Part shown: in pieces, positions 9,830 to 38,594 of the stretch
Position numbering within the stretch: the stretch's first letter is position 1
Layout: every line of letters starts with the position of its first letter
NCBI GenBank assembly: GCA_033178465.1
Contig: GCA_033178465.1_4726.3
Origin: a phage
DNA: 38,683 bases
Direction: 5' to 3' (one strand)
Program-made: the position numbers and the translations under genes
The notes under the pieces: model-generated
What the model was told of the DNA's origin: nothing
The model's input: only the letters and a program-made list of their open reading frames with translations
Databases searched by the model: none

Positions 9830-9831
9830 TA

Positions 9832-12426
9832 TCACTCACCTTTGATTGTGTAAAACTTCGTGAAGTCCACGCGATCTTTCAAGAACTCACGACTGACGCG
9901 TTCTAAGAACCGCAGTTGTTTAACCGTAACTTCGAGCGGCGTCCAACTATCGTGTGGATGAATAGAGACCATCCGCCAATCGTAATTACGTAACGCAGGA
10001 TCGTAGTCATAGAACCATTTATACGGCTCCATGAAATCCATCAGTTTAACGTCCTGCATATCAGGATCGGGATCGATAACACCGTTGATAAGATCGTACG
10101 TTACAGCCATCAACGTTGGGCTGATAAGCTGGTATTTGTTTTCAATCGTTACCGGCGTATCGTACTTCACACGAGGGAAATACAAGGACATATAGTCTTC
10201 AACGCGTTTATCGGTTTCAAGACTTTTGTCGCGTAGATAATACGTGTCTGTGTTCACGAGACCACGGATAGGGGCAATAACATGGTAAATCGCATAAGGC
10301 ACCCCATCGTTGACTTTGATGTCGGCAGGGTATTGCGTGTCCTCTGCGGTAACCACTTCGCTACGATCGTAAATGCGTCCACCAACCACAATACGAACAA
10401 CATGGTCGTCACGAACATTGAACACGTCGTCGTAAGAAAGCTGATTATGCATCGTCCAACCGGTATCGTAAACGGTTTCACCGGTTAAGTCCGTACGTGG
10501 AAAACCAGTACATCTCACGGTAACCGTGTGCGTGTTCCCTTCACTGAAATACCGTTTCGCGTTGATCACGATCGTTGGCCATTTTACGATGTAATCGATA
10601 TCGCGCACCAAGCTGTAGCTTTTGGTTGCTCGCTCGTCACCTAACCATACTTCGATTTGACCAGGTTCGAAAGGCAGCGGATATTCAACATCAATACCCG
10701 TCGTAACATCCAACCATACGGTGTGGTTACGATGTTGTATTGTGGTCTTATACGCTAAGAAGTAGGTGTCGAACAATACTAAACCGGTTTGCTTTCTTCC
10801 ATCCAGCGACCATTTTATTACCCCGTTCTCTTCCGTTACCACAGAAGCATCGTCGGTAACATCCTTCCAGGTGTTCGCAACAGGTTGTCCGTTACGAAGG
10901 TTTACGCTATAACAGCGGTAACTCGCCCATTCACGGATTGGGACGTCGGCAACACCCATCACGTAATCAAGCGTTCTCCCACCAACACCCGATCGACCCT
11001 CAACATAGGACGTGGTTTCATATTGCGGATAAAAATGTCGGCCTGCCGGATGTTGCGTGATACCCAATAATAGACCGTCACTGTCGTACTCAAAGAACGT
11101 CGCATTTGCACGCAAACCCCATGGTACTTCAGCGGTAGGGGTACCCATATCGTCAGTAACGCGTTGTGGACTATCTGCAACCAGTTTTGCCATCGCGTTA
11201 TACCCGTAAGCGGAGGTCACCATGTCGATCGTGATATTGCTTTCCTTATTACGCATGATGCGCGTATAATCACTGGCTTCAAGGGTACGTGCAAAGAACT
11301 CAGGTATATTCGCGTTCTGTTCTAACATTGCACCGACGATGACGTCGTCTGGAAGTTTATACAATTCGTGGATGCGGTTATGTTCGAAGGTTAACTGCGT
11401 TTTCAAACCACTATCACGGACAACCACTTCCAGGGTTAAATCACGAAGCGATTCTGCTCCATCAACCCGTTCAACGAAGTAGCTGACATAATCAACAGGA
11501 ATCCCGTAATCACGATGCGTGAGCATGCGGATACTATTTTCCTGGTTGGTATGGTAATAACGCCCTTTTCCATTAGGGCCTTTCACGTAGATATCAACAT
11601 CATCACGATACCGGATTTTAGTATCAGCTTCATCTTTCGGCGGATGAATAAGATACTTCACTTTTTTGTCAAGATCGCTGTTGTACGTTTTAAGATCTTC
11701 TACACGGAAGCTGTACCGATGAACAACTGTGCCATCATAGATGACCTGAATGCTATCGCCGATCTTAAAACTTGACGGTGGGATGTCTTCAACCGCTTCA
11801 CCATTGATACTGCAGTGCGTCCAACCGATTCCGGTTTCCTGGATCTTTTTACGCCAGGCGTATAGCTGACGCTGCCACTGTAGAACCTGTGTCGAGCTGG
11901 TTACAATCCCCCCAAGGACATGCACTTCACGCCCCGTCGGTTTCGTGTATGACGGATAGCCTTCTGCGAAGTCAGCGTTGAGATAAGTGCGCCAGTAATA
12001 ATCACCAACGCCAAGATCGGCGATATTCGGTTGGTCGAGCACACAGACCAGCATCGTTTCGTTTTCCAGATTACCCGTCCACGTTAATGTCAGCGGGAAT
12101 TCTTTACCGTCCTCGGTGTAGATGTTGTAATACGATCCCTTTACTTCACAGAACTTGCTGAGTTCTCGCCACCACAACCGCCCAGCCCCGACATTAAAAT
12201 CCTCTCCCATGTGTCGTCCAATAACAAACACGTGGAACGTATTCGTATCGTCAGGAAGATTGAATGTACGATGCCAAGCCGTAAAGTTTTTTACTGCGCC
12301 GGTCTTTCCGGTAATACGACGCATCTTGATACGATGCTGGTTGTCCATTAATGGACGGCAGTTCACATTCAGCGCAGCATGATTTATCAAGTATTGCGCT
12401 GTAGGATTAGAAGCGTTCAACACCAC
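9832..12426 (-). CDS. hypothetical protein, probable virion structural protein (864 aa)
   Basis: Long ORF. The start is a GTG at 12424-12426 preceded by GGAGG at 6-nt spacing; the first in-frame ATG (12348) lacks an SD. Overlaps the upstream gene by 20 nt. Confidence 0.55.
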   Translation of the reverse strand: MVLNASNPTAQYLINHAALNVNCRPLMDNQHRIKMRRITGKTGAVKNFTAWHRTFNLPDDTNTFHVFVIGRHMGEDFNVGAGRLWWRELSKFCEVKGSYYNIYTEDGKEFPLTLTWTGNLENETMLVCVLDQPNIADLGVGDYYWRTYLNADFAEGYPSYTKPTGREVHVLGGIVTSSTQVLQWQRQLYAWRKKIQETGIGWTHCSINGEAVEDIPPSSFKIGDSIQVIYDGTVVHRYSFRVEDLKTYNSDLDKKVKYLIHPPKDEADTKIRYRDDVDIYVKGPNGKGRYYHTNQENSIRMLTHRDYGIPVDYVSYFVERVDGAESLRDLTLEVVVRDSGLKTQLTFEHNRIHELYKLPDDVIVGAMLEQNANIPEFFARTLEASDYTRIMRNKESNITIDMVTSAYGYNAMAKLVADSPQRVTDDMGTPTAEVPWGLRANATFFEYDSDGLLLGITQHPAGRHFYPQYETTSYVEGRSGVGGRTLDYVMGVADVPIREWASYRCYSVNLRNGQPVANTWKDVTDDASVVTEENGVIKWSLDGRKQTGLVLFDTYFLAYKTTIQHRNHTVWLDVTTGIDVEYPLPFEPGQIEVWLGDERATKSYSLVRDIDYIVKWPTIVINAKRYFSEGNTHTVTVRCTGFPRTDLTGETVYDTGWTMHNQLSYDDVFNVRDDHVVRIVVGGRIYDRSEVVTAEDTQYPADIKVNDGVPYAIYHVIAPIRGLVNTDTYYLRDKSLETDKRVEDYMSLYFPRVKYDTPVTIENKYQLISPTLMAVTYDLINGVIDPDPDMQDVKLMDFMEPYKWFYDYDPALRNYDWRMVSIHPHDSWTPLEVTVKQLRFLERVSREFLKDRVDFTKFYTIKGE

Positions 12427-13497: not shown

Positions 13498-15570
13498 ATG
13501 AGGCTTAAGAATAGCACGCCTCGCGCGATTTTTACGGGCTTTAAAGAGGGTCTTACCACGGATCCGGTTACAGCCCCAGAGATCACGCCCATTCACCTCC
13601 CGTATGTTTTCATTCAGGGTGGTCGTGGTAAAGAGGACACCTTGCTGTTAACAGGGGACGCCCTGTCTACAGTCTACGGTGAAGATATGCTGAACTACCG
13701 CAGTAAGTACGCTTCTCCGGCAACACTGATTGCTCGCCAGGCTGCTTCTACAGGTAGCGCGATCTTCACAAAACGTTTGGTTGCGCCGGATGCAACGGCA
13801 GCACGCATCCGTATCGGTGTTGAAGTGGTCGCCGATAAACTGGTCGTTTACCAGCGTAACGCTGACGGGTCCTTTATGAAGGACACGCTCGGCAACAAAA
13901 TCCCTGACGGCGATAAAACCGTTGACGGGTTGAAAATGCGTTGGGTTGTTAACCACGACAAAGATGCCGAAACACCTAATGCTTTCGGTAAAGATGAAGT
14001 GGTTCTCGGACAACTGACTGCAACGGATGGTGCCCAGAGCAACTACTATCCTATTCTGGATGGAATGGTGAGCTGGCGTGGTGCTGAAGGGGACAACATC
14101 GGCTTACGTCTGGAAGCACCGACCGCGCTGAGCAGCAACCCTACCCGTACCGATATCATCGAACGTATCGGTGCTTTCCTGTACCGCATTCAGTTCGTGG
14201 AACGCAAGTCTTCACGTACTGCGCCGACGGTCATTCGTACGATCAGCGGTATGGAACAAGAAACCTTCGCGTTGCAGGAAGGTGTTATCCAGCCTGATGA
14301 CGAAACCGATCTGTCCTTCGGTAAAGTGGTCGTTGATGCCTACGAGTATAATGAGACGGGTAATACCCCGATCTTTGCTCCGATGGATCAGATGCATCTT
14401 TATCAGAAGAACATCGACGAAGTCGTCAAGAAGCTGTACGAATCTGAAAGCAAAGTTAACAACGATCTGTTAACCGACGTCGAATTCGTCGAAGGCCAGA
14501 TGAACATCTTCACCGGTGTTGATTACAACGGCATTCCGTATCAAACCATCGAAGTTCTCGATGCGGATCAGGGTGGTGCTATCTTCGACGGTACCAGCAC
14601 CTTCTACGCAATCGATGGTAGTGACGGTGACGTAAACTGGGATACCTTCGATGCGTTAGCGAAACAGCAGTTCGAATCGTTCGGCAACATGGGCGAAGAT
14701 CTGGAAGATATGGCTTTCTATCCGTTCTCCATCGTGTATGACATTGGTTACAAAGTCGACACGAAGAAAGCGATGGCAAACGTCTTGTCTCTGCGTCCGG
14801 ATGTCATGATCATTGCGTCAACCCATACCTGGAAGGGTGTGGAACTGAATGTCGATGAAGAAAGCTCCATGGGTGCAATGCTGCGTAACTACTATCGTCT
14901 GCATCCAGAAAGCGTGCTTTACAATACCCCAGCTTGCCGTGCTGCGGTATTCATGCAATACGGTGAAAGCATCGAAGCGCCAAGCCTGGGTAAAGTTCCG
15001 TTGACGCTGGAAGTTGCGAATAAACTTGCAACTTACATGGGTGCTTCGGATGGTGTTATCCGTGGTACTCGCATCGATAACAACCCTGGTAACGTTGTCA
15101 CAACGATGCGTAAAATCAACAAGACGTATCGTAACGCAACGGTCCGTGATCGTGATTGGGAAAACGGCTTGAACTATGTTCAGACCTACAACCGTAATTC
15201 CAACTTCTTCCCGGCTTGGGGCACGATCTACAATAACGACCGTTCGGTATGGCGTTCGTTGATCAACGTGATCATCGGTTGCGATCTGACTCGTGTCTGC
15301 TATCGTCTCTGGGCAGAAACCACCGGTACAACAGGAATGGATGAAACCCTGTTCCTGAAACTGATGGGCGAACGCTTCCTGGAATACACCACGGGTCGTT
15401 ACAACGACCACGTGACTGTTAAGGGACGTTTCTACCTGGATAAAGAAGACGGCTATAACGGCTTCAGCTATCATGGTGATATCAGCCTGATCGGCGATCC
15501 AGGCATGACCGTGGGTACGTTTACCATCACCGGGCTGCGTCGTAACACCGAAGCAGCAGAAGCGGCGTAA
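13498..15570 (+). CDS. putative contractile tail sheath protein (690 aa)
   Basis: Strong SD (AAGGAGAG, 5-nt spacing); codon usage strongly biased toward highly-expressed codons (CGT, GGT, CTG, AAC); size and position directly upstream of a ~300-aa gene fit the sheath-tube pair of phiKZ-like myoviruses. The function is inferred from size and context, not from a motif. Confidence 0.5.
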   Translation: MRLKNSTPRAIFTGFKEGLTTDPVTAPEITPIHLPYVFIQGGRGKEDTLLLTGDALSTVYGEDMLNYRSKYASPATLIARQAASTGSAIFTKRLVAPDATAARIRIGVEVVADKLVVYQRNADGSFMKDTLGNKIPDGDKTVDGLKMRWVVNHDKDAETPNAFGKDEVVLGQLTATDGAQSNYYPILDGMVSWRGAEGDNIGLRLEAPTALSSNPTRTDIIERIGAFLYRIQFVERKSSRTAPTVIRTISGMEQETFALQEGVIQPDDETDLSFGKVVVDAYEYNETGNTPIFAPMDQMHLYQKNIDEVVKKLYESESKVNNDLLTDVEFVEGQMNIFTGVDYNGIPYQTIEVLDADQGGAIFDGTSTFYAIDGSDGDVNWDTFDALAKQQFESFGNMGEDLEDMAFYPFSIVYDIGYKVDTKKAMANVLSLRPDVMIIASTHTWKGVELNVDEESSMGAMLRNYYRLHPESVLYNTPACRAAVFMQYGESIEAPSLGKVPLTLEVANKLATYMGASDGVIRGTRIDNNPGNVVTTMRKINKTYRNATVRDRDWENGLNYVQTYNRNSNFFPAWGTIYNNDRSVWRSLINVIIGCDLTRVCYRLWAETTGTTGMDETLFLKLMGERFLEYTTGRYNDHVTVKGRFYLDKEDGYNGFSYHGDISLIGDPGMTVGTFTITGLRRNTEAAEAA

Positions 15571-15585
15571 TGAGAGGAGTCCATA

Positions 15586-16476
15586 ATGCGTCCTGATAAT
15601 ACCCTACTCGGTGAACAGGGTGTTGGTGCTCTTAGCAACGCGGCTATGGTCGATATTCGTGCAGGTGCCCAAAACGGGTACATCAGCAATATCGGTACGT
15701 ACGTTGCTAACGCCAACTACATTCCGAACCAAATGTTCTGCCTCCTGCTGGAGGCACCACGTGGTTTCAACTATCTACCTAACCCGGATGTCCAGATCGG
15801 TTATCTGAAGGCGCTGGTAGAAGAGGTTGCGCATTCGATTACCGGTCTGCAACGTGGACTGGAAGTTGAATTCGTTAGCGTCCCGGTTTCTGGTTCCGGT
15901 GAAATCCAGGAAGAAGTCTCTGACGTTAAACGTCCTCGCTCTAACCCGACTTTCGGGATCTATGAGAAAGAAGGTCGTTCCGTTAGTTACTTCCTGGAAC
16001 AATGGATCACGTATCTGTTGATGGATCCGGATGCCAAATATCCGATGTTGTCGTCTATCGTATCCACCGGTGGTCCAACCGACCTGCTGGCGGATTATCG
16101 TAGCGCAACCATGCTGTTCGTTGAGCCAGACCGTCAACACAAGAAAGTGGTTAACGCCTGGCTGTGCACGAACATGATGCCTCACGGTACCGGTGACTGG
16201 ACATCACGTCGTAACAAGAACGATGCGCCAAACGTGGTAGAATTGAGCATTCAGTTCACTGCGCTAACGCAGACCAACTACGGCGTGCGTGCTTTCGCAC
16301 AACGTCTGCTGGATAAGATGAACCTGCTCAAAGTGAACCCGGATTTCCGTCCGGCTTATCTGAGCGACATCGATCCTGCTGTGGCAGCGCAGAAGGTTGG
16401 CTATACCTTCGACTTTGATAACAACGATACCTTTGAGGTACCGAATACTTATCAAAACGTAACACCTCGCGTGTAA
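15586..16476 (+). CDS. putative tail tube protein (296 aa)
   Basis: Starts 15 nt after the sheath stop with SD GAGAGGAG; same codon bias; followed by a strong terminator. The function is inferred from context. Confidence 0.45.
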   Translation: MRPDNTLLGEQGVGALSNAAMVDIRAGAQNGYISNIGTYVANANYIPNQMFCLLLEAPRGFNYLPNPDVQIGYLKALVEEVAHSITGLQRGLEVEFVSVPVSGSGEIQEEVSDVKRPRSNPTFGIYEKEGRSVSYFLEQWITYLLMDPDAKYPMLSSIVSTGGPTDLLADYRSATMLFVEPDRQHKKVVNAWLCTNMMPHGTGDWTSRRNKNDAPNVVELSIQFTALTQTNYGVRAFAQRLLDKMNLLKVNPDFRPAYLSDIDPAVAAQKVGYTFDFDNNDTFEVPNTYQNVTPRV

Positions 16477-27845: not shown

Positions 27846-29492
27846 TTAGGCTCCACGAGGTCCCGTTAAGTTGCGTAGTAGGAACGCAACCGTATCGTAA
27901 CCAATATCGATGTTGAATTTATTTTTACCGCTTACCCAGAAAGCTCGCTTCTTGTGCGAGTTGGTAATTTCGTCAATGGCTTCCATGGAATAAAGAACGT
28001 TAACCGAGACTGTATCACCATCAAAGTCCCCACCAAGTCCGGCGAGGTATGGCGCAGGGACAATAGTCGTTTCTACGAACGAAGCATTAGGTAACCAGTC
28101 GGGGTATTCCCATGCGATAAATCGTTCATCCGTCATTGGTTCCCAGTTACTATCCAGTTCGGTTTTCGGTTTTGCTGCAACGGTCGTACGCGCGTAACAG
28201 GTTAACGGAATGACGGATTGCATACCCGATACCGGATAACGTGTTACCATCGCAGCCAGGTTATTCCAGTATTTATATCCTGCGATATAGATAAGCTCGG
28301 TGTACGTGATGGGGTGAACATCCGCACCAGGTTTGTTAAGCATCTCCGGGGGTAATTCACTCATACCACGGAATAACCGAAACGAATCGTTGTTCACATA
28401 GACAAGACAAAGATATCGTCCATTAACCATGATAGGTTCGTTACGCACACCGGGATCGCTTAAGGTGTTCAATAAACGTTCTATCCCGTCCCATGTTGTA
28501 AAGTCATCGATGGTGTCTGGATCAAGCGTGACGCGCTCACGTTCCATCGTTTCGGTATCAATAAGTTCAACTTCTGTAACATCACGGACAAATATTTCCT
28601 GCAAAATACCCGTACGTAACGCATGTTGCGTTACGGGGAGAGCAGCTTTACTCATCTGGTATAACCCTAACTGAACCGCGGTACAGGAAGGCTGGTTAGG
28701 CGACCCTAATACCTCCGTTGTGGGGTTAATTGCCGAAATAACGTTACGGGTTGAGTTCCAAACACGACGTGAGCCGAACTTCCCTTGGAAGATCCCTTTC
28801 TTACCTTGGAACATATCCAACAACAAAGCGTAGATATCGTTAAATGTTCTCTGTAAGCTCCAGCGTTGACCGTCGTAAACGGGATCGGAATAATCTTTTA
28901 ATCCATCAGGGACGGTGTTGGAAATTGCCAGGAAACGACGATACAACTCTGTGATTTCTTGCTCGCTTTCATACCCGCCTTCTTTTACTTCTATTTCACG
29001 TAAGCCCGCAGGTAAAACCAGTAAGTGACGGGTCATCGCTTTGAACATGTTCTCTTCGACAACTTTAATTCGTAGCTCTCGTTGAGCTGAACCCGTTGAA
29101 ACGAACTTGATATCAGCGACGTGTTGTGCAAAGAACCCGTATCCTGTTTGTCCTGTTAACGCATCGGACGCAACGAAGTCGCGTTGTTCAGGATCCCAAC
29201 GCGCGTACGCCTTTCCTGACATGATATCGCCATAGAGGTGTTTTAATCGAATGAGGCGGTCGTAAATGACAGGATGCAGGATTTCAACCTTGCATTCAAT
29301 CACCGCAAATCGACGGTCTCGATCTTCACTACCCGCACTACCAAAGATGGTGTAAGAATAGAAACCATCATCGTGGAAATTACCGGTGCTTGGGTCACGA
29401 ATGCTCATGCTCGTGATCTTGGGGAGAAAACGTAACTGCTGTTTATCGAGGTGTAAAATACTAATATTAAACGGCTCTCTGACTTTAGCCAT
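27846..29492 (-). CDS. multisubunit RNA polymerase beta-prime N-terminal fragment (about 548 aa)
   Basis: Contains LAGLGGDFDGDTVSVNVLY (codons at about 28014..28028), matching the beta-prime Mg-binding NADFDGD loop; the N-terminus DGFYSYTIFGS...RRFAVIECKVEILHPV parallels beta-prime GLFCARIFGP...ERMGHIELASPTAHIWF, and GKFGSRRVWNSTRNVISA parallels GKRVDYSGRSVI. The track start (29534) has no SD; the ATG at 29490-29492 (MAKVREPF...) is preceded by AGAGGAG at 7-nt spacing. Confidence 0.75.
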   Translation of the reverse strand: MAKVREPFNISILHLDKQQLRFLPKITSMSIRDPSTGNFHDDGFYSYTIFGSAGSEDRDRRFAVIECKVEILHPVIYDRLIRLKHLYGDIMSGKAYARWDPEQRDFVASDALTGQTGYGFFAQHVADIKFVSTGSAQRELRIKVVEENMFKAMTRHLLVLPAGLREIEVKEGGYESEQEITELYRRFLAISNTVPDGLKDYSDPVYDGQRWSLQRTFNDIYALLLDMFQGKKGIFQGKFGSRRVWNSTRNVISAINPTTEVLGSPNQPSCTAVQLGLYQMSKAALPVTQHALRTGILQEIFVRDVTEVELIDTETMERERVTLDPDTIDDFTTWDGIERLLNTLSDPGVRNEPIMVNGRYLCLVYVNNDSFRLFRGMSELPPEMLNKPGADVHPITYTELIYIAGYKYWNNLAAMVTRYPVSGMQSVIPLTCYARTTVAAKPKTELDSNWEPMTDERFIAWEYPDWLPNASFVETTIVPAPYLAGLGGDFDGDTVSVNVLYSMEAIDEITNSHKKRAFWVSGKNKFNIDIGYDTVAFLLRNLTGPRGA

Positions 29493-29737
29493 GGAGACAC
29501 TCCTCTTTACCACCACCGGCTGCGGCGGTATCATCTGAACACACGAGAGACGTAATGGGTGATGGCGTCACCCATCGCTTCCTTGCCTGATGCCAGGAAG
29601 TTATTAGGTTACGTACCTGCCTGATTTTATCAAGCGGGCGATGTGTGAAGTTACGCTTCAACATTATCAATGCCGAAGGTAAGCTTCGTGCATCACGTTC
29701 CAACGTAACATGGGAACGTATCGAACTGGAGGTATAC

Positions 29738-32700
29738 ATGGTAGATAAAACCCGTGTTGAGGGTGATGATAATTGGGATAACTGGGATGAAGACTTCTCC
29801 CTGGATCTCGATTTTAACGAACCCAAAGACGATCGTAAACCGATAACACGCTTTGCGGTAGGAGCGGTTAAAGGTGCTGCTGAAGATCTTACTTCCTACG
29901 AAAGAATGAAGGAGATCGCCAGAAACGCATTGCCTAAGGGCTACAGCGACGGTATGGATCTTATCGATTCCGCCGTCGGATCCACGAAGGAACTATACAA
30001 TGAAGCCGTTCGTGACGTTCTTCCTAAGGTCCAAAGCTCAAAACGGTTAGCTGCACAACTAACCAAGAAATACCGTGCGAGCATGCCCGATTTCTCGAAG
30101 AAAATTCTCGAGCAATGGGAGCGAGAAGCCAAGGAAGAAGACGAACGTAAACAAGCTGAAGAAGCCCTTCGTCAACGCATGGCGAGCGCGGGGGACGATG
30201 AGATTGCCCGCAAGGTTGCCGAGGCATTAGGCGAATCAGCAAACCAAAGCGCGGATCAGTTTGCTGAACAGCAAGCGAAAGAGAGTATCCGTGACGATAT
30301 CGCTGACAAACGGTACGCTGTAACCAACAAACAAATGAGTGCGATGCAAGAAGGCGTCGCCAAGATGGTTGGTTTCAACAATGAATTCGCTGCACGCTAC
30401 ATGCGTAAAAGCCTGGAACTGAAATATCGTTCCTTAGCGATTCAACGTGCAAGTTTTGATCAGCATAAAAAGTTAGCCGAAGTCTATATCGGTTTATTAC
30501 AAAACATCCAGAAGAATACGGCTTTACCTGATGCAGCTAAAGCGAAGATGTCGGAAGAATTCCGTCGTAGTGCATACCAACGTTTCTTTGGTAATGCGTT
30601 AGATGCGATGGGTTCTTTCGAGAACCGTTTCTTTGCCGATGTTAAGAAGAACCTCGCCACCAACGCATTAGGTGCTTTAAAAGGCGTCGTGTCTGGCGCA
30701 AACGATGCGTTATACGGTTTAAACGAAGCACGTGACTCGATGTCCGTGATGGACGGGATGGGGTCAGAAGGCGATATTAAGGAAATGCAAGGAAAGATGT
30801 TGGGTCAGTTCATTGGCTCAACTGTCGCACCATGGATGGCTAATAAAGGCAGGATGGCGTTACGTGATTTAGCAAAACGTCACCCCAATGCTAAATTCGC
30901 TAGCGCGTTAAAAGCCGTGGATCAAGGTGGTGAGGCTGCCGCATACACAACGCGTAATCTCGGTAAACTGCTCCAGGAAGATATTCGTAAGAACGAATTC
31001 AATCTTAGCGATCCGTTTTACAAGCAATTGTTACGCGGCGCAGGGCGTTGGGCGTTCAACATGGACAGCGGACGTAACTTCCGTGTGATGAACGACACCG
31101 CTGAAACACTGGCAGAGCAAACGTCTTTCGACGGTTTAACTTACCGCAGTATCAATGAAGTTATTCCTGGTTTTCTTGCACGCATTCTGAAAAGCAGTGA
31201 AGGTATCCGCACCGGAAACAGCGATCCTGACTACGAGGTCTATGACGGCATCAGCGGACAATTCGTGTCTCAGCGCACGCGTGAACAAAGCGTCAATGAC
31301 ACGCTGTTTAACAAACGTACATTTGGTTATTACGCCAGCCGTTTCAACGAGGTTATCTCGGTCATCGATCCTGATAAGCAATTATCGGAAAAAGCCAGGA
31401 AGGCACTGGCTAAACAGTTGGCGCGAGATAGCGACGCGAACATCGCATTCGACCCGGTTCGTTTTACGGATGAAAGCAACTTCGATCGTAGCATTGACCG
31501 TGACGCTATTAAGGAACTTTCCACGTACTTTCGTGACCGTTACGGTATTCGTGACGATATCAACGATAAGGGGGAACGTCATCAGGTCATTGGAAACCGC
31601 GGGCAATATTACACGGAACGTAACCGAGCCGATCTTCGCTACGGAAATCTGAAATCGTTACAACCGGATATCCAGCGTAACCTTAACCTACTGAAACGCA
31701 CTGGTGACGTCCAATATCTGGAACGTATTGGTATTGTAACGAGAAATAGCGACGGAAGTTACTCGGTTAATCACGATCGGTATTTCTCTGAAATCGATCG
31801 ATACATCGACCGACCGGAGTACGCTGAACGTAATGATGTTAATACGCGATTAACCGCTCAGGAAACAAGAGCGCTGGCGTTGGGTTATCGTGACGCAAAA
31901 CCATCAGTTGATGACGTCCAAAATGCGGGTCTACCGAACATCGGTCGTAAGGCTGTTGGAACAGTAACCGTTGATGAAAACATCGGCTACGATAAATGGT
32001 GGAACGACACAGGTGTTATCACTACATCGCTTGAAGAACAGAATCGAGCATGGCAAGAACTCTATCTCGAAGCGTTGTCCGAAGCATCCGAACAACGTGT
32101 TGAAATGCTTGCGTTGCTGAAAGCCATTTCTGAGAAAGACTGGTCTAATAACGTTTCGCTGGATGGTGAAGATGTACCTGAAGGTGCAGCACCCATTTCA
32201 TTTATTGACCGCGCCAAACAAAAACTCGGCGCACGCAACCTCTTTAAAGGCGGTCGTAATCTCTTCTGGAAAGGAATTAAAAATACCGCACGGTTGGGTG
32301 TTAAAGGTGCGCGCTGGGGTGCAGAACGTACATTAGGTAGTTTGGTAAATTCTGGCCGACGCATTATCAATTTCAACCGCTTCGTGTTCGGCGCGTTATC
32401 CAAGGTTGATCAGGTTCCGTTCGACATTTACGTTAAAGGGGAATCCCAACCACGCATATTGGCTGCCAAACTTCGTCAAGGGTTATACTTCGATGAAGCG
32501 ACAGGAAAAGCCGTAAAACGGATGAAGGATATCAAAGGCCCACTCGTTGATGCAGATGGAAACATCGTAATCAGCGACGAGGATATCGAGAAAGGGTTGG
32601 TCACTCGCGCTGGTCGTGCCTTTGAGAATTCAGGACTTAAGGCGTGGGCACGTGAAGGTCTTAATGGAATAACGACGGTATTAAGTCTGCCACGGATGTT

Positions 32701-35700
32701 AAAACGCGGTGCGGTCGAGATCTACAAACAGCTTGACAAAACACCCGACGTTTACGTCAAGGGAGAATCAACGCCTCGTCTGTTGTCCATGGTGTTAGCA
32801 GCGGGTGGGTATTTCCGTCGCTCTGACGGACAAGTCATCAAAAATCTTGAAGACGTCGATGGTGATGTTGTTGATGCACAAGGTAACGTCGTGCTTACGC
32901 TTGCCGACATGCAGAAAGGACTTGTCGATAAATACGGTAAAGCGATTCGTCGCTTAAAAGAAAAGCTCATCAACTTCGGTGTAAAAGCTTTTACGTTACC
33001 GTTAACGCTGCTACGTAAGACAAAGGACATCCTTAAAGCCCTTCCAGGTAAAACCGTTAACGGCCTACGACGGATGGGATTAAATTTCCAATCACCTGAC
33101 GCATTACTGGTGGGAACAACGTCGAGCATGGTAGATCGGCTCGATGCGATTTACCAGCTTCTTGACCAGCGTATGCCGGGTGGTGATAAGGATTACCGCG
33201 ATTGGAATGGCGATGGTGTTCGAGAAGGATCGTTGGAAGACCTGAAACGTAAACGTGAAGCCAAGGAAAACGGTAAGGATGACACCGGCAAAGATTCCAA
33301 TAAAGGAGAAGAAAAGGAGAAGAAACGAGGGTTACTCGGAAGCCTTTTCGATATGCTCGGCGATACCGCATTAGGTAAACGCCTCATGGCGAGTCCGCTT
33401 GGAAAAATTCTGGGTGGTCTTGGGGCGGTGTTAAGCGGCGGAGCATCGTTAACCGGATTGTTAGGCAAGGGTCTCATTAGTGGAACCGGCGCGCTGGTCA
33501 AGGGAGGACTAAGTGCGGCAGGATGGTTAGGACGCGGTGCGTTAATGGCGGGCGGGGCCGCATTGAACGCTGTTGGTGGGTTATCGGGATTAGGTGCATT
33601 CCTTATCTCACCTGTTGGGCTTGCTATTGCAGGCGGTGCATTGGCTGCTTATGCTGGATGGAAGATCTATCAGCATTTCGCCGAGAAGCCTGACCCGATG
33701 CAGAAGCTCCGTCTTATTGCATACGGTGCAAAAGGGGACGATAAAGACTTCAATAAGAAGCTGCTTGCGACAGAAACATACCTCACCGACCATGTGGTTA
33801 TGACCGGGGATACCATCGGATTCGATCCGAAAGCGGATTCTGAAAAGATTCTCGAAATCTGGGAATTGTCCCTGGAAGATTCCGACCGAATGAACGAATG
33901 GAAACGCTGGTATCTGCATCGTTTTATTCCTGTTTTCGCTCGCGCGTACAAACTCTGGAAAGAGCATATGCCGGACGAGAAGAAATACATGGAAATGGAT
34001 AAATATCCGAACGGTGAGAACAAAGTGAAATGGTCGGAAGCGTTTATCTGGCCTTCCGATAGTCCTGATGGTCCGTATTACGTCGAAGCTAACCCGTTGG
34101 GTTCTTCTGGTGCGACGCGTTATATTGCTGGTCAAGACGTCAAAACCTTGATGCTGAAACAACTCGAAGCCATCAAGAAAGAGTACCAGAATCAGATCAA
34201 ACAATACTCTCATGATGAGGCTATTGCTGATTGGTCACGGATGTCTGACACACAACGTAAATCCGTTGCCCCTAACGCATTACGTGGTCAGAAAGCGTCG
34301 TTACGTTTTAACGATAAACGTTACAACAGCGCTGGCGCTAAAGGACGACAGAAGCTTGACGCGACCGCGGTTATTGAAAGCGTAGACCGCCGTGGCAGGA
34401 AATGGGTTGCCGGTGGATACATCGATGAACTCACCAGTCTCCGTGTTCGCGCGTACGGTATCAAGGTTCCGTTGTTAAGCCAGATAAAAGTGCTGATGGA
34501 ACTTGAAGACGCTGTAGAACCTGGCGTTGTCGCTGAAGGTAAAGGTGTTAAATACGGTGGCGATCTTGTCGCGCTCTACAAGAAATTCGCGACGAAGTTC
34601 GGAAGAGACGTTAACAGCAAGCATGATCAGGATATCTGGTTTGCTTGGATGAACAACCGTTTCCTGCCCGTCTTTTTAACCTATTACCAACAAGTTAGCG
34701 ACATGGGCGGTCAAGGTCTTCTGTCCGACGTGGTACAGAACCTGAAAGACAGCCAACGCTGGGAGATCGGTGAAGCACTTGTCGCAACGCAATACCGTGA
34801 TGAGAAAGGTACACTGCAGCCCGTATGGTCCTGGAATAGTTGTGGTTTCTCCGGTACTGAAGCTAACACCACCAGCAGTTCAACAAAGAGCCAACTCGAT
34901 CTGTTAAAAGAATATGCGGATAAAGAGAAGGTTCGTGAGAAGAACGCGGAAGCATCGCAAGAGGATACCGAGAAATTATCGAAGATCCAAGAGCTGATGA
35001 TGAAGCAGGCTGGGTACGAGAAGAAGGACGGTGTCTGGCAGAAGAAATCTCGCATTACCGGTGGGATGAGTAACTCCGAAGCGAATTACAACCCCAATGG
35101 GAATAAGGTCGGTGCAAGCAGCTTTACTGCTTCGGCTACTTCCAATGCGGGATTAGGGTCAACCGGCGATCTTACTGGATTGCCTAACATGGGCTTACAG
35201 AAACCTGCAATGGGACCAGGTCCTGAAGCTGGACGTCGTACGCTTGTTAAATCCGCTGTAAAACGCGGTATTACCGATCCAATGGAAATGGCGATGTTCC
35301 TTGCGAACATCGAACATGAATCGGGGAACTACACTCACGTACGTGAGGGGAACTATAAGACACCAGAGCGTCTTAAACAGGTCTTCCCTTACAAATTCCG
35401 TGATGTGCAGGATGCCGCACAGACGATCAGCATGGGGCCGGAAGCGGTATTCGAACGTGTGTATGGTAATCGTAAAGATCTCGGAAACACACAGAAAGGA
35501 GACGGGGCGAAGTATTTAGGACGTGGCTTCATTCAGGTTACCGGTAAAGCTAACTACGCTCGTCTGTCTAAGACCTTGAATAAGGATCTTGTCAGCGATC
35601 CGACATACCTGGAAACGCCGGAAGGTGCAGCGGAAGGTAGTGTCGCATGGTGGCTCAACCGAGGTAACGTATTACGCGATCCCGCAAAACGGGGTGATGT

Positions 35701-36403
35701 ACGCCAAGTTCGTTATCTGGTTAACGGCGGCTATAACGGATTACGTGATGTTGAACAACGTTCAGCTTATTGGATTCAGGCGGCTAAGAACGGCACCCTG
35801 AAGAAAATGATGGACGAGTTATCAGGGTCAACATCCGACGATCAAGCTGAAGGACCAACCACTGCCGAACAGGTGAAGAACGAAGCGGCACAAGAGGCAA
35901 ACGGAACACCTGCTGTAAGCAACGATCCGCAAGCCCCAGTATCTTCTACTACCCCTGAAGCTAAACCGTCTGCGGCTGCCGGGACGGCCCCAGCACCTGG
36001 AGAAGCATCGCCAACGCCTGGAAGTTTCGAAACAGCAAAAGCCGCGGCAGGACAACCGACATCAACTCCAGCACCTAGCGATTTGCCGTCAAACCCGGGC
36101 GCAAATCGAGGGATATCGGTTCCGAATACGCCTGCACAGGTTGCGCAGTCTGCAACACAAACGTCGGCTGCAAGTGAGAACTTCTACGGTAGCGCAGGTG
36201 AAATTCTCCGACAGCAGCTGACCACACAGCAGAACATCGAGAAGAACACCGGTAGAACGAATGAACTTATTTCGGAATTAATCCAAGCCGTTAAGGGTTC
36301 TTCTATCGGTAAGGGTTCTGCAAGTCCTTCTCAACAACAGGCGATGTCGCTACCTAATCGTCCGCAAGGAATCTCTCCAACACGGACAAGGTACGCACAG
36401 TAG
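29738..36403 (+). CDS. giant multidomain virion-type protein with GH19 muralytic domain (2221 aa)
   Basis: The track ORF begins at GTG 29645; the ATG at 29738 follows GGAGG at 5-nt spacing. Contains a coiled-coil-like N-terminal third, a tandem ~108-aa repeat (32423..33060), a glycine-zipper hydrophobic segment (about 33325..33670), a GH19/lysozyme-like domain (about 35230..35800; FLANIEHESG, YLGRGFIQVTGKANY, LVNGGYNG) and a Pro/Ala/Ser/Thr-rich C-terminal tail. Confidence 0.7.
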   Translation: MVDKTRVEGDDNWDNWDEDFSLDLDFNEPKDDRKPITRFAVGAVKGAAEDLTSYERMKEIARNALPKGYSDGMDLIDSAVGSTKELYNEAVRDVLPKVQSSKRLAAQLTKKYRASMPDFSKKILEQWEREAKEEDERKQAEEALRQRMASAGDDEIARKVAEALGESANQSADQFAEQQAKESIRDDIADKRYAVTNKQMSAMQEGVAKMVGFNNEFAARYMRKSLELKYRSLAIQRASFDQHKKLAEVYIGLLQNIQKNTALPDAAKAKMSEEFRRSAYQRFFGNALDAMGSFENRFFADVKKNLATNALGALKGVVSGANDALYGLNEARDSMSVMDGMGSEGDIKEMQGKMLGQFIGSTVAPWMANKGRMALRDLAKRHPNAKFASALKAVDQGGEAAAYTTRNLGKLLQEDIRKNEFNLSDPFYKQLLRGAGRWAFNMDSGRNFRVMNDTAETLAEQTSFDGLTYRSINEVIPGFLARILKSSEGIRTGNSDPDYEVYDGISGQFVSQRTREQSVNDTLFNKRTFGYYASRFNEVISVIDPDKQLSEKARKALAKQLARDSDANIAFDPVRFTDESNFDRSIDRDAIKELSTYFRDRYGIRDDINDKGERHQVIGNRGQYYTERNRADLRYGNLKSLQPDIQRNLNLLKRTGDVQYLERIGIVTRNSDGSYSVNHDRYFSEIDRYIDRPEYAERNDVNTRLTAQETRALALGYRDAKPSVDDVQNAGLPNIGRKAVGTVTVDENIGYDKWWNDTGVITTSLEEQNRAWQELYLEALSEASEQRVEMLALLKAISEKDWSNNVSLDGEDVPEGAAPISFIDRAKQKLGARNLFKGGRNLFWKGIKNTARLGVKGARWGAERTLGSLVNSGRRIINFNRFVFGALSKVDQVPFDIYVKGESQPRILAAKLRQGLYFDEATGKAVKRMKDIKGPLVDADGNIVISDEDIEKGLVTRAGRAFENSGLKAWAREGLNGITTVLSLPRMLKRGAVEIYKQLDKTPDVYVKGESTPRLLSMVLAAGGYFRRSDGQVIKNLEDVDGDVVDAQGNVVLTLADMQKGLVDKYGKAIRRLKEKLINFGVKAFTLPLTLLRKTKDILKALPGKTVNGLRRMGLNFQSPDALLVGTTSSMVDRLDAIYQLLDQRMPGGDKDYRDWNGDGVREGSLEDLKRKREAKENGKDDTGKDSNKGEEKEKKRGLLGSLFDMLGDTALGKRLMASPLGKILGGLGAVLSGGASLTGLLGKGLISGTGALVKGGLSAAGWLGRGALMAGGAALNAVGGLSGLGAFLISPVGLAIAGGALAAYAGWKIYQHFAEKPDPMQKLRLIAYGAKGDDKDFNKKLLATETYLTDHVVMTGDTIGFDPKADSEKILEIWELSLEDSDRMNEWKRWYLHRFIPVFARAYKLWKEHMPDEKKYMEMDKYPNGENKVKWSEAFIWPSDSPDGPYYVEANPLGSSGATRYIAGQDVKTLMLKQLEAIKKEYQNQIKQYSHDEAIADWSRMSDTQRKSVAPNALRGQKASLRFNDKRYNSAGAKGRQKLDATAVIESVDRRGRKWVAGGYIDELTSLRVRAYGIKVPLLSQIKVLMELEDAVEPGVVAEGKGVKYGGDLVALYKKFATKFGRDVNSKHDQDIWFAWMNNRFLPVFLTYYQQVSDMGGQGLLSDVVQNLKDSQRWEIGEALVATQYRDEKGTLQPVWSWNSCGFSGTEANTTSSSTKSQLDLLKEYADKEKVREKNAEASQEDTEKLSKIQELMMKQAGYEKKDGVWQKKSRITGGMSNSEANYNPNGNKVGASSFTASATSNAGLGSTGDLTGLPNMGLQKPAMGPGPEAGRRTLVKSAVKRGITDPMEMAMFLANIEHESGNYTHVREGNYKTPERLKQVFPYKFRDVQDAAQTISMGPEAVFERVYGNRKDLGNTQKGDGAKYLGRGFIQVTGKANYARLSKTLNKDLVSDPTYLETPEGAAEGSVAWWLNRGNVLRDPAKRGDVRQVRYLVNGGYNGLRDVEQRSAYWIQAAKNGTLKKMMDELSGSTSDDQAEGPTTAEQVKNEAAQEANGTPAVSNDPQAPVSSTTPEAKPSAAAGTAPAPGEASPTPGSFETAKAAAGQPTSTPAPSDLPSNPGANRGISVPNTPAQVAQSATQTSAASENFYGSAGEILRQQLTTQQNIEKNTGRTNELISELIQAVKGSSIGKGSASPSQQQAMSLPNRPQGISPTRTRYAQ
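32423..33060 (+). repeat. intragenic tandem duplication (2 x ~108 codons) inside the giant gene
   Basis: Protein modules DIYVKGESQPRILAAKLRQGLYFDEATGKAVKRMKDIKGPLVDADGNIVISDEDIEKGLV... and DVYVKGESTPRLLSMVLAAGGYFRRSDGQVIKNLEDVDGDVVDAQGNVVLTLADMQKGLV... align along their length; the nucleotide copies start at 32423 and 32747. Confidence 0.5.
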
Positions 36404-36452: not shown

Positions 36453-38594
36453 ATGGGTATTCTTGTTCAAAACGCCCTAATCACCAAACAGGCATTTTTA
36501 TTACCGGGCGATAGCAGCACGCTTAGTGCCGACATGATTAAAGCGAGACATACACCGTATTCCTACGATAACGTCGATGATACCACCTTAGGTGGGAACT
36601 GGGTACTTAACCCACCACCGCAATATACCAAATTTGCCGACATCAAAGAACGCCGACGTGCGGTTATGCCAGGATCAACGGGCATGGGTCGAGGCTATAG
36701 TGAAAGCATTAACAGCTTTAAAGAGGTCGTTACGTTACGATTCGGTAAACCTCGCTTTACAGGCGCAAGTATCTTCTTTACTGATTTCTACGATGCGGAT
36801 GTTGCCGTAACGGTTAAAACCGGTCGCGATCCCGGTATTCTTTATTACGCAGCCAAAGCGTATACCACCGTTCTTTCTTACCTCACACCTCTACCTTACC
36901 TGTATATGGTTGGACGTATCGGTCGATATTTCCTGGGTAAGCCTACCAGTCAATATTACTATCAAGTACCAACCATGCATGTGTATTGGGCGTCTTTCCA
37001 GACGCTGGTAAACCAAACAGCGATAAACATGGGTCTTATCGCCGGTGCTGGTAAAGATAAAGGCTACGTGGAAGAAGGGGGTACCGTACTCCACCAATAT
37101 TCAATCGGTGGTCAGAACGTTGAAGAATTCATCAACTACGCCTCTAAGACGCTACCGGGGATTTATAAGAAAGGTGGTGGGATCGATATCTATCAGATCG
37201 CAACACGTCGTCAGCGTATACAGAACGCATGGGTACGTCGTATTCAATCCATGATGGAAAACGACTACTCGTCTTACGAGGAGTTCTGGAACGATCTTGA
37301 TAAACGACTTGATAGCGGAGCATTTCCATCGGATGTAACCGGCCGTACGTTAACGCAGTATCTCGCCGATACGCAGAAGTCTGCTGTTTACAGTGCGACA
37401 GCTGGTGATAATAAACAAACGATGGACGACCTTTTATTTGGAAGAGCCTCGTACACCAATAAAGATGCCGATGCTAACTTCAATGTCTCAGCAGCTACCT
37501 CCGACGGCGGTACGTCAACACAGAGTCAGGGTACAACAGCCAATGTCGGTAATTCAACGTCAGGGACAACGCAGGCTTCAACAGCAGCATCAACGGCTGG
37601 AGGCGCGAACGTACAGAGCAAAGGAATCGGTCAAACGAACGCAGCCGAAGAAGCTACGTTTCTTGATCTGATGGATGCTGAACTGGCCGACGGCGCTCAG
37701 TTTATCAGTTTTCGAGTCGATTCTGTCACCAGCGTAACCGAAACGTTTTCAAACAGCGCTTCAGAAAGTTCAATCGCACAGACGATGAATAGCCGCGCGC
37801 AAGCGAACATCGAACGTCGTTTCACCCTTTCCGGTGGTAATACAGGTTGGGCTGTACTAGACGAAGCCATCAAAGCCGGTTCCGATCTCGTTAATGGTGC
37901 TATTTCCGGGATGGGTCTGGATGGTATTTTTGGTGCCTTCATGGGTTCCGGCTTCGCTGACATTCCGAAATTCTATTCTGGATCATCGGTAAGTCTACCG
38001 CGTGCGGATCTGACGATGGAATTACGTTCCTGGAGTGGGGACCGCTGGTCGATCTTTACGAACCTCATGGTACCTCTTTTAGCTATCCTTGCAGGCGGTT
38101 TGCCTCAGGCTACCGGTAAATCGTCCTACGGGATGCCGTTCATGTGTGAGTGTTATATTCCCGGTAAAGTCCAGATTAAAATGGGTCTTATCGATAACAT
38201 CACTGTGACGCGTCATGTTGGAAACGTGCCGTCAACACGTGAGCGGTTACCGTTAGGCATCGATGTCAGCTTCAGTGTTTATGACCTGTCGTCCATCGTC
38301 GCCATGCCGATCACAACGACGGCCGCATCGATCGCAAAACTGGATCCTCGTGGCTTCTTAAGCGATCTTCTTGCTGACGATACCCCACTCAACAACTATC
38401 TTGCTGTATTATCGGCATTGACACTTACGGAACAAGTTTACATGATTCCTGATTTAAGTCGTCGCATGCATAAAACCATGGCTGATATCGACAGTTTCTG
38501 GAGCAAAGGTAATTTTGCTAGCTGGTTGTCTGACACCATGCCTGGCAGGATAGCATCAGGGCTGTTATGGAAACGTACGGAACGACCGTTCTGA
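36453..38594 (+). CDS. hypothetical protein, probable virion/tail-associated protein (713 aa)
   Basis: Long ORF with ATG at 36453 after GAGGAA; follows the giant protein gene on the same strand; contains a Ser/Thr/Gly-rich low-complexity segment (TSDGGTSTQSQGTTANVGNSTSGTTQASTAASTAGG) and a C-terminal hydrophobic segment (LMVPLLAILAGGL). No enzymatic motif recognised. Confidence 0.6.
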   Translation: MGILVQNALITKQAFLLPGDSSTLSADMIKARHTPYSYDNVDDTTLGGNWVLNPPPQYTKFADIKERRRAVMPGSTGMGRGYSESINSFKEVVTLRFGKPRFTGASIFFTDFYDADVAVTVKTGRDPGILYYAAKAYTTVLSYLTPLPYLYMVGRIGRYFLGKPTSQYYYQVPTMHVYWASFQTLVNQTAINMGLIAGAGKDKGYVEEGGTVLHQYSIGGQNVEEFINYASKTLPGIYKKGGGIDIYQIATRRQRIQNAWVRRIQSMMENDYSSYEEFWNDLDKRLDSGAFPSDVTGRTLTQYLADTQKSAVYSATAGDNKQTMDDLLFGRASYTNKDADANFNVSAATSDGGTSTQSQGTTANVGNSTSGTTQASTAASTAGGANVQSKGIGQTNAAEEATFLDLMDAELADGAQFISFRVDSVTSVTETFSNSASESSIAQTMNSRAQANIERRFTLSGGNTGWAVLDEAIKAGSDLVNGAISGMGLDGIFGAFMGSGFADIPKFYSGSSVSLPRADLTMELRSWSGDRWSIFTNLMVPLLAILAGGLPQATGKSSYGMPFMCECYIPGKVQIKMGLIDNITVTRHVGNVPSTRERLPLGIDVSFSVYDLSSIVAMPITTTAASIAKLDPRGFLSDLLADDTPLNNYLAVLSALTLTEQVYMIPDLSRRMHKTMADIDSFWSKGNFASWLSDTMPGRIASGLLWKRTERPF

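Follow-up and report, generated by a model that had tools for sequence, protein, structure and literature searches.

A giant tail protein of the phiKZ gp181 family in a Goslar-like jumbo phage carries an endolysin-type GH19 module

Phage phiKZ encodes a protein of 2237 amino acids (aa), gp181, whose database record bears the note 'tail-associated endolysin' and which is listed in a review of virion lysins as a virion-associated lysin with measured muralytic activity (PMC5380687, citing Briers et al. 2008). The Escherichia phage vB_EcoM_Goslar has a gene of the same kind, gp204, which GenBank calls a 'putative chitinase' and RefSeq, with the note 'COG3179', a 'tail fiber protein'. Another tail lysin is pb2 of phage T5, a tape measure of 1219 aa. 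It has, in this order, a long helical or coiled-coil region, a hydrophobic stretch of 46 residues compatible with transmembrane helices, a muralytic domain, and a short C-terminal helix held in the hub. On receptor binding pb2 is expelled, and its enzyme is proposed to digest peptidoglycan while its hydrophobic part forms a channel. Here we describe a 2221-aa protein encoded at positions 29738-36403 of a 38,683-nucleotide (nt) phage contig (GCA_033178465.1_4726.3, from assembly GCA_033178465.1; this whole stretch is called the window below), and find that it represents the Goslar type within the phiKZ gp181 family: a giant tail protein, present in the virion at low copy, with a peptidoglycan-cutting module near its C-terminus. 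That module belongs to glycoside hydrolase family 19 (GH19) and occupies a slot that is filled by different lytic enzymes in different relatives.

A positional orthologue of phiKZ gp181

The open reading frame (ORF) is uninterrupted over 2221 codons on the plus strand, with its ATG at 29738 and its stop codon at 36401-36403, exactly where the original prediction, made from the sequence before any database search, had placed a giant gene. Megablast matched it to Goslar at 96.9% nucleotide identity over 100% of the query, and the protein is 98.4% identical in amino acids to Goslar gp204 (YP_009820915.1) over its full length, indicating that the window comes from a Goslar-like, nucleus-forming jumbo phage of E. 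coli. An in-frame GTG at 29645, which is the RefSeq start for Goslar gp204, would add 31 codons to give 2252 aa. However, ATG 29738 is the better start, because a GGAGG Shine-Dalgarno sequence lies 5 nt upstream of it whereas GTG 29645 has none, and because all homologues in an alignment of the family start at an equivalent, acidic N-terminus. The database start of Goslar gp204, equivalent to an extension over window 29645-29737, is therefore probably too long. Promoter and terminator scans gave scores below shuffle expectation. The features on which the assignment of the locus depends are as follows.

29728..29732, plus strand: Shine-Dalgarno sequence GGAGG, read from the sequence, 5 nt before ATG 29738
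29738..36403, plus strand: giant ORF, 2221 aa and stop codon, orthologue of Goslar gp204 and phiKZ gp181
27846..29534, minus strand: divergent gene for a virion RNA polymerase (vRNAP) subunit of 562 aa, homologue of Goslar gp205, in the position of phiKZ gp180
36453..38594, plus strand: downstream co-oriented gene of 713 aa, homologue of Goslar gp203 and phiKZ gp182

Comparison of annotations revealed one gene order common to the window, Goslar, and phiKZ: minus-strand genes for a head maturation protease, two virion proteins, and vRNAP subunits, then the divergent giant gene, then a gene of ~700 aa. The product of this last gene (Goslar gp203, phiKZ gp182) is, in the published structures of the two virions, the tail-tube initiator's second ring, or 'spacer', which joins the tube to the hub. 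The giant gene thus diverges from a vRNAP subunit gene and lies directly upstream of the tube-initiator/spacer gene, and phiKZ gp181 holds exactly the same genomic position. BLASTP aligned aa 35-693 and 887 to ~1700 with phiKZ gp181 at 25% identity (E 6e-45 and 1e-36), and PHROG 3201, the body family of the phiKZ gp181-like giant peptidoglycan hydrolases, matched the protein with E 1.7e-295 and aa 11-801 with E 5.6e-121. Shared position and protein alignment together make the window protein the positional orthologue of phiKZ gp181. The founder of this family, phiKZ gp181, was reportedly shown by Briers et al. in 2008 to be a structural peptidoglycan hydrolase. As a near-copy of an annotated Goslar gene, the window protein in itself adds little that is new: it belongs to a known family whose GH19-bearing members are already known and labelled, several GenBank and UniProt records naming such homologues 'chitinase' or 'GH19'.

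The GH19 module and the lytic slot

We found that aa ~1835-2020 form an endolysin-type GH19 module. The original prediction had proposed GH19 for the region around FLANIEHESG...GRGFIQVTGKANY, and endolysin profile matches, intact catalytic residues, and agreement between AlphaFold and Foldseek all bear this out.

35240..35797, plus strand: GH19 endolysin-type domain (probable muramidase), aa 1835-2020, from PHROG 181, phmmer against PDB, alignment, AlphaFold, and Foldseek

The PHROG 181 'endolysin' profile matched aa 1840-2058 with E 6e-53, phmmer against PDB sequences returned 9eoi (E 1.8e-22) and 4ok7 (E 1.2e-17) over aa ~1835-2020, and a word-indexed search returned 89 homologues, most of them carrying a precomputed PF00182 assignment. 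The Pfam GH19 model PF00182 itself stayed below its cut-off (18.3-20.9 bits versus 25.5), and on the whole protein Pfam reported only this sub-threshold match (18.3 bits) and a spurious Talin_R4, with nothing meaningful from NCBIfam. Across a 49-sequence alignment the catalytic residues E1861, E1870, and T1935 (E-x8-E plus Thr) are invariant, as are G1928, G1930, N1996, and G1997, and the giant protein also has H1860, S1862, Y1909, R1929 (in G1928-R1929-G1930), and Q1933 of the GH19 core. These residues represent the catalytic acid, the base, and the water-coordinating residue together with the endolysin-subfamily core of the GH19 Engineering Database, and they map to ELYS positions 48-50, 58, 106, 123-125, 128, 130, and 191 (PMC8547705). 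An AlphaFold model of aa 1815-2046 reached a mean pLDDT (predicted local distance difference test) of 92 and a pTM (predicted template modelling score) of 0.85. Foldseek against PDB ranked the endolysin-type structures 7r6s, 9eoi, 4ok7, 9ms7, 8p8e, and 8xcl first and GH19 chitinases after them (E 1e-9 to 1e-7 for endolysins versus 1e-5 or worse for chitinases), with probability 1.0 for 7r6s, 9eoi, 4ok7, 8p8e, and 8xcl, so that the alpha-helical two-lobe fold of GH19 is recovered. Sequence similarity, catalytic residues with their core, and fold thus all place the module in the endolysin subfamily.

The active site of the module matches that described for PaGH19Lys (9eoi), a muramidase without chitin activity whose E60Q mutant is essentially inactive (PMC12329726). 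The module is probably a muramidase, and the label 'chitinase' is a misnomer. An enzyme acting at the end of the infection cycle as an endolysin, or on chitin as a chitinase, would agree with the GenBank product name 'putative chitinase' and with the homology of the domain to stand-alone endolysins. We nevertheless regard such a role as very improbable, given a virion-borne protein of 2221 aa with 1800 aa of conserved structural sequence, a domain that has the endolysin-subfamily core and not chitinase loops, Foldseek scores that favour endolysins, and the lack of chitinase activity in PaGH19Lys, the closest characterised GH19 relative (PMC12329726).

A 161-aa protein on a 484-bp contig (P0012, corresponding to window ~35360-35842) is 100% identical to part of the GH19 domain. 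Its NCBI name is 'glycoside hydrolase family 19 protein, partial [Escherichia coli]', and the sequence is probably that of a phage, entered under its host.

The slot occupied by GH19 in the window protein contains a different enzyme in phiKZ gp181, where Pfam finds an SLT lytic-transglycosylase domain at aa 1885-1978. The domain swap that the original prediction had suspected, with GH19 here and a lytic transglycosylase in phiKZ, is therefore real. A search with the N-terminal 1200 aa found 279 phage records, and the 60 listed are all jumbo phages of 209-320 kb. Homologues are variously annotated 'tail fiber', 'chitinase', 'glycoside hydrolase', 'lytic transglycosylase', 'endolysin', or 'peptidoglycan hydrolase', and once, in a Klebsiella phage, 'tape measure protein'. 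We then drew a sample from IMG/VR, reducing 80 loci to 55 non-redundant complete giants of 1893-3343 aa, and ran Pfam on the last 800 aa of each. The slot contained SLT in 28 of the 55 relatives, GH19 in 11, VanY in 5, M23 in 3, DUF5675 in 3, and CHAP and glucosaminidase in one each, making GH19 the second commonest of at least seven module types. With our own hidden Markov models (HMMs), the distance from the end of the lytic module to the C-terminus was always ~180-280 aa, or rarely ~500 aa; 43 of the 56 relatives classified in this way use the same slot, and GH19 in the window protein ends 206 aa from the C-terminus.

In a rough neighbour-joining (NJ) tree of the N-terminal 650 aa, computed without support values, GH19 bearers are scattered among SLT bearers, and in a rough NJ tree of the GH19 domains, likewise without support values, the domains of giants cluster together, apart from endolysins of ~200 aa. 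GC content is 0.50-0.51 in the GH19 cassette versus ~0.48 for the gene, and no foreign signature was seen. The trees suggest that GH19 is an old, family-internal cassette reshuffled by recombination rather than a recent capture. Since module swaps are common in the phiKZ gp181 family, the presence of GH19 here is a correct but fairly ordinary finding. Its wider use lies in the slot: a freely exchangeable cassette offers a natural experiment on which bond needs cutting during entry, and its modules supply a ready set of virion-derived lysin domains.

DUF5675 (PF18925), which fills the slot in 3 of the 55 relatives, also does so in Ralstonia phage RP31 (found in BFVD), and this position suggests that DUF5675 is a cell-wall hydrolase domain.

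Architecture, virion location, and a possible role in entry

Apart from the GH19 module, the protein is composed of the following parts.

29738..32317, plus strand: conserved N-terminal region, aa 1-860, presumed elongated 'ruler' part, from PHROG 3201 and invariant alignment columns
32402..32662, plus strand: tandem repeat copy 1, aa 889-975, a 'D-I-Y-V-K-G-E...G-N-I-V-I' module, from pairwise BLASTP, conserved across the family
32729..32992, plus strand: tandem repeat copy 2, aa 998-1085, from pairwise BLASTP, conserved across the family
33185..33328, plus strand: charged linker rich in K, E, D, and R, aa 1150-1197, from composition, preceding the hydrophobic segment
33335..33667, plus strand: hydrophobic segment rich in Gly, Ala, and Leu, aa ~1200-1310, from Kyte-Doolittle (KD) windows and composition
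33692..34234, plus strand: family-specific alpha-helical domain copy 1, aa 1319-1499, with motifs LRLIAYG and W..RFIPVF, pLDDT 65-87
34415..35044, plus strand: family-specific alpha-helical domain copy 2, aa 1560-1769, with motifs LRVRAYG and W..RFLPVF, pLDDT 83-97
35825..36157, plus strand: low-complexity linker rich in A, P, S, and T, aa ~2030-2140, from composition
36158..36400, plus strand: conserved C-terminal module, aa ~2141-2221, with a helix-like L..QL..Q motif, from the family alignment

The N-terminal region begins with an acidic stretch containing DDRKPI and includes the motifs RKSLELKYR (aa 223-231), NTALPD (aa 260-265), and EVIPGFLARI (aa 474-483). A coiled-coil N-terminus, as had been predicted, found no support in a crude heptad scan, although runs of 39-50 aa free of Pro and Gly (aa 166-205, 213-251, and 760-809) suggest long helices. 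The predicted tandem repeats exist, but in two copies only and at the protein level only: a targeted pairwise BLASTP shows the copies to be 41% identical (E 6e-23), whereas whole-protein self-BLASTP at E 1e-3 missed them and Tandem Repeats Finder on the DNA returned only trivial 9-11-nt repeats. AlphaFold predicts them as small beta-rich modules (pLDDT ~83).

Per 100 aa the hydrophobic segment contains 28 Gly and 15 Ala. It includes two stretches without charged residues, of 20 and 31 aa, and candidate transmembrane helices at aa 1224-1243 and 1272-1308 (windows with KD of at least 1.3). An equivalent segment occurs in 54 of 56 family members, phiKZ gp181 being one of the two weak cases (maximum KD 1.25). 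The original prediction had called it a glycine zipper; its hydrophobic character stands, but GxxxG is not enriched in aa 1200-1315 (3 observed versus 6.9±2.0 in 2000 composition-preserving shuffles). The predicted PT-rich tail likewise held in part, as the A/P/S/T-rich sequence is present but is followed by a conserved module of ~80 aa, so that it is a linker and the protein continues beyond it. This C-terminal module is common to all family members, whatever lytic enzyme they carry, and, by analogy with T5 pb2, is presumed to be the end held in the hub.

Between the hydrophobic segment and GH19 lies a duplication that had gone unmentioned, of two alpha-helical domains whose cores are 28% identical (E 2e-5). 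An exhaustive phmmer search with aa 1315-1770 returned 559 representative clusters, of which 289 reach E≤1e-10, and the matches fall almost entirely in proteins of 2000-3400 aa at the same relative position, indicating that these domains are specific to the giant family. Against PDB, Foldseek with an AlphaFold model of aa 860-1830 (mean pLDDT 61.6) gave a best E of 1.9, leaving the repeats and alpha domains without a fold match there; a BFVD search with the same model returned family members only, and a word-indexed search for homologues of aa 860-1830 gave one hit only. For aa 1315-1770 (window 33680-35047), the closest representative of a 50%-identity cluster is 52% identical (P0102, 2222 aa) and all others are at most 32% identical, so that the Goslar-type giant stands on a long branch with few sampled members in a family of at least 289 clusters.

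The original prediction also held that the protein is part of the virion, and published mass spectrometry agrees for Goslar gp204, its 98.4%-identical counterpart. In purified Goslar virions, gp204 (YP_009820915.1) was detected with 34 peptides, 24.5% coverage, and 3.4-8.0 copies per virion under the label 'Tail protein' (2026 Goslar preprint, supplementary label-free quantification table). The peptides listed include aa 393-406, 739-753, 969-986, and 2102-2124, and since they come from both ends, the particle contains the N-terminal body as well as the far C-terminal linker. The text of the preprint does not discuss gp204, and neither the Goslar nor the phiKZ ('structural atlas') cryo-electron microscopy paper models this protein or names a tape measure. 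In our search of the literature, which covered the structure papers on Goslar and phiKZ as well as reviews of jumbo phages, neither gp181 as a tape measure nor gp204 was discussed. The gp181 family is absent from the two recent virion atlases, and among proteins of nucleus-forming jumbo phages it is the best candidate for the tape measure or for the protein that penetrates the envelope.

We lean towards the view that the giant protein is a multifunctional, tape-measure-like protein of the tail lumen that is expelled C-terminus first, cuts peptidoglycan, and then inserts in a membrane. Three to six copies would lie in the tail tube, with the C-terminal ~80 aa docked in the hub or initiator and the N-terminal ~1200 aa extending up the tube. 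Once the sheath had contracted and the spike was gone, the protein would be expelled C-terminus first; GH19 would enter the periplasm ahead of the rest and hydrolyse bonds linking N-acetylmuramic acid to N-acetylglucosamine (MurNAc-GlcNAc) locally, and the hydrophobic segment, being N-terminal to the enzyme, would emerge next, insert in the host membrane, and help form a conduit for DNA and co-injected proteins. If the C-terminus is indeed docked at the hub, this order of emergence matches the order of the envelope layers. Consistent with such a role, the copy number is low (3.4-8 being compatible with 3 or 6 copies in the lumen), the protein is invisible in the symmetrised maps, its gene lies next to that for the tube initiator, no other protein has been assigned as a candidate tape measure, the order of parts parallels that of T5 pb2, and the Klebsiella phage homologue is annotated as a tape measure. 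As plausibility arithmetic and not a test, ~1175 residues at 1.5 Å give ~1760 Å, near the length of 46 rings at ~38 Å, the rise reported for phiKZ.

Several observations weigh against the tape-measure-like role. The virion data are for Goslar and not for this exact phage, and the location in the lumen, the ruler function, the order of emergence, and the insertion in a membrane are inferred here, as are the ejection and the spanning or opening of the envelope that the original prediction had also proposed. A canonical frameshifted tail-chaperone pair is absent upstream of the giant gene, where the neighbouring gene is divergent. Pfam and NCBIfam tape-measure models gave no match, and PHROG tape-measure matches are weak (1533 at E 1.4e-5, on the low-complexity Gly-rich segment, and 1506 at E 0.003). 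A simple ruler does not fit phiKZ, with 43 rings and 2237 aa, and Goslar, with 46 rings and 2221 aa (two points only), and a tube of ~1750 Å needs, at 1.5 Å per residue, only about half of 2221 aa, so that only part of the protein could act as a ruler. Lastly, the hydrophobic segment is weaker in phiKZ gp181, and AlphaFold confidence for this segment is low.

The neighbouring head genes raise the alternative of an ejection protein from inside the head. Like T7 gp16, such a protein would be enclosed in the capsid together with the vRNAP and inner-body proteins and ejected via the tail, after which it would cut peptidoglycan and build a trans-envelope channel from the periplasm. In T7 gp16 the transglycosylase is N-terminal. 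The genes across the divergent junction do encode head or packaged proteins (the protease, the high-copy virion proteins gp208 and gp209, and vRNAP subunits), low copy number is also compatible with this role, and chimalliviruses are known to inject many proteins. However, the giant gene shares its orientation with the tube-initiator and wedge genes and adjoins these and not the head genes; its product is built like T5 pb2, a tape measure, and not like T7 gp16; both the phiKZ record and the Goslar mass spectrometry table say tail-associated; and the virion-lysin review puts gp181 at the baseplate or tail (PMC5380687). We consider packaging in the head unlikely.

We give still less credence to an external component of the baseplate or fibres, a 'tail fiber' or 'cell-puncturing device' that displays the lysin outside the tube. 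RefSeq and PHROG labels point that way, much of the peripheral baseplate is unmodelled in the Goslar and phiKZ structures, and gp181 is listed as a 'needle-like cell-puncturing device' in the virion-lysin review (PMC5380687). Against this, spike, spike tip, hub, and pin have now been assigned to other proteins (phiKZ gp164, gp163.1, gp101, and gp174; Goslar gp13 and gp48), as have the initiator rings, we detected no fibre-like or receptor-binding fold or Pfam domain, a hydrophobic segment of ~110 aa is poorly reconciled with a solvent-exposed fibre, and an external lysin could not reach peptidoglycan past an intact outer membrane.

The hydrophobic segment and the two private alpha domains might engage the inner membrane at the tail tip and take part in the formation of EPI vesicles, a conjecture to which we give only an outside chance. 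The jumbo-phage literature that we searched names no phage factor for the EPI-vesicle or inner-membrane step.

Neighbouring genes and comparison with described systems

Genes for a tail sheath (690 aa) and a tail tube (296 aa) lie at window 13498-16476, ~13-16 kb upstream of the giant gene, and with head and vRNAP genes between them and the giant gene, the tail module of this phage is split. P2- or Mu-like myophages have sheath, tube, chaperone, and tape-measure genes in contiguous order.

Goslar gp204 is the nearest described relative, a near-identical protein with the same neighbours and the same GH19 domain, from which the window gene differs by ~3% of nucleotides and by the RefSeq start 31 codons earlier. 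The two loci also differ in the adjacent vRNAP gene, which in Goslar holds a group I intron and gp206, both absent from the window. At window 28019-28027, within the minus-strand ORF 27846-29534, ~2.05 kb is missing relative to Goslar (positions 8239-10289 of Goslar locus L001). This stretch is the annotated group I intron plus gp206, which is similar to phiKZ ORF179 and probably an intron-associated endonuclease gene, and without it the vRNAP subunit gene of the window is a single ORF of 562 aa, as compared to 502 aa and a separate exon in Goslar. Another Goslar-like contig (IMGVR_UViG_3300045988_173921, our L002) has ~464 bp extra inside the 1448-aa vRNAP beta' gene (window 24633/24636) and ~533 bp extra at the other vRNAP gene (window 28022/28045). 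These differences suggest that intron-like insertions are polymorphic, present or absent, among close relatives.

Compared to phiKZ gp181, the window protein is of similar length (2221 versus 2237 aa) and shares the N-terminal region, tandem repeats, alpha domains, linker, and C-terminal module, with the lytic module in the same slot (aa 1835-2020 here, 1885-1978 in gp181). At ~25% identity, however, the two differ in the enzyme itself, as the SLT lytic transglycosylase of gp181 is of another fold family and chemistry than GH19, and in the weaker hydrophobic segment of gp181.

Stand-alone GH19 endolysins (PaGH19Lys, 9eoi; SPN1S endolysin, 4ok7; KTN6 gp46, 8p8e) share the catalytic fold and active-site residues with the module, at 28-30% identity and TM-scores of ~0.6-0.7. 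These enzymes are ~200 aa long and act from within at lysis, whereas the domain described here is embedded in a virion protein of 2221 aa.

T5 pb2 has no detectable sequence homology to the giant protein and belongs to a non-contractile tail, and proteolytic cleavage releases its enzyme, a zinc peptidase, whereas no cleavage is known for the giant protein. The functional parts of the two proteins nevertheless stand in the same order, and the position of pb2 at low copy, as a trimer, in the lumen of the tube resembles the location that we propose for the giant protein.

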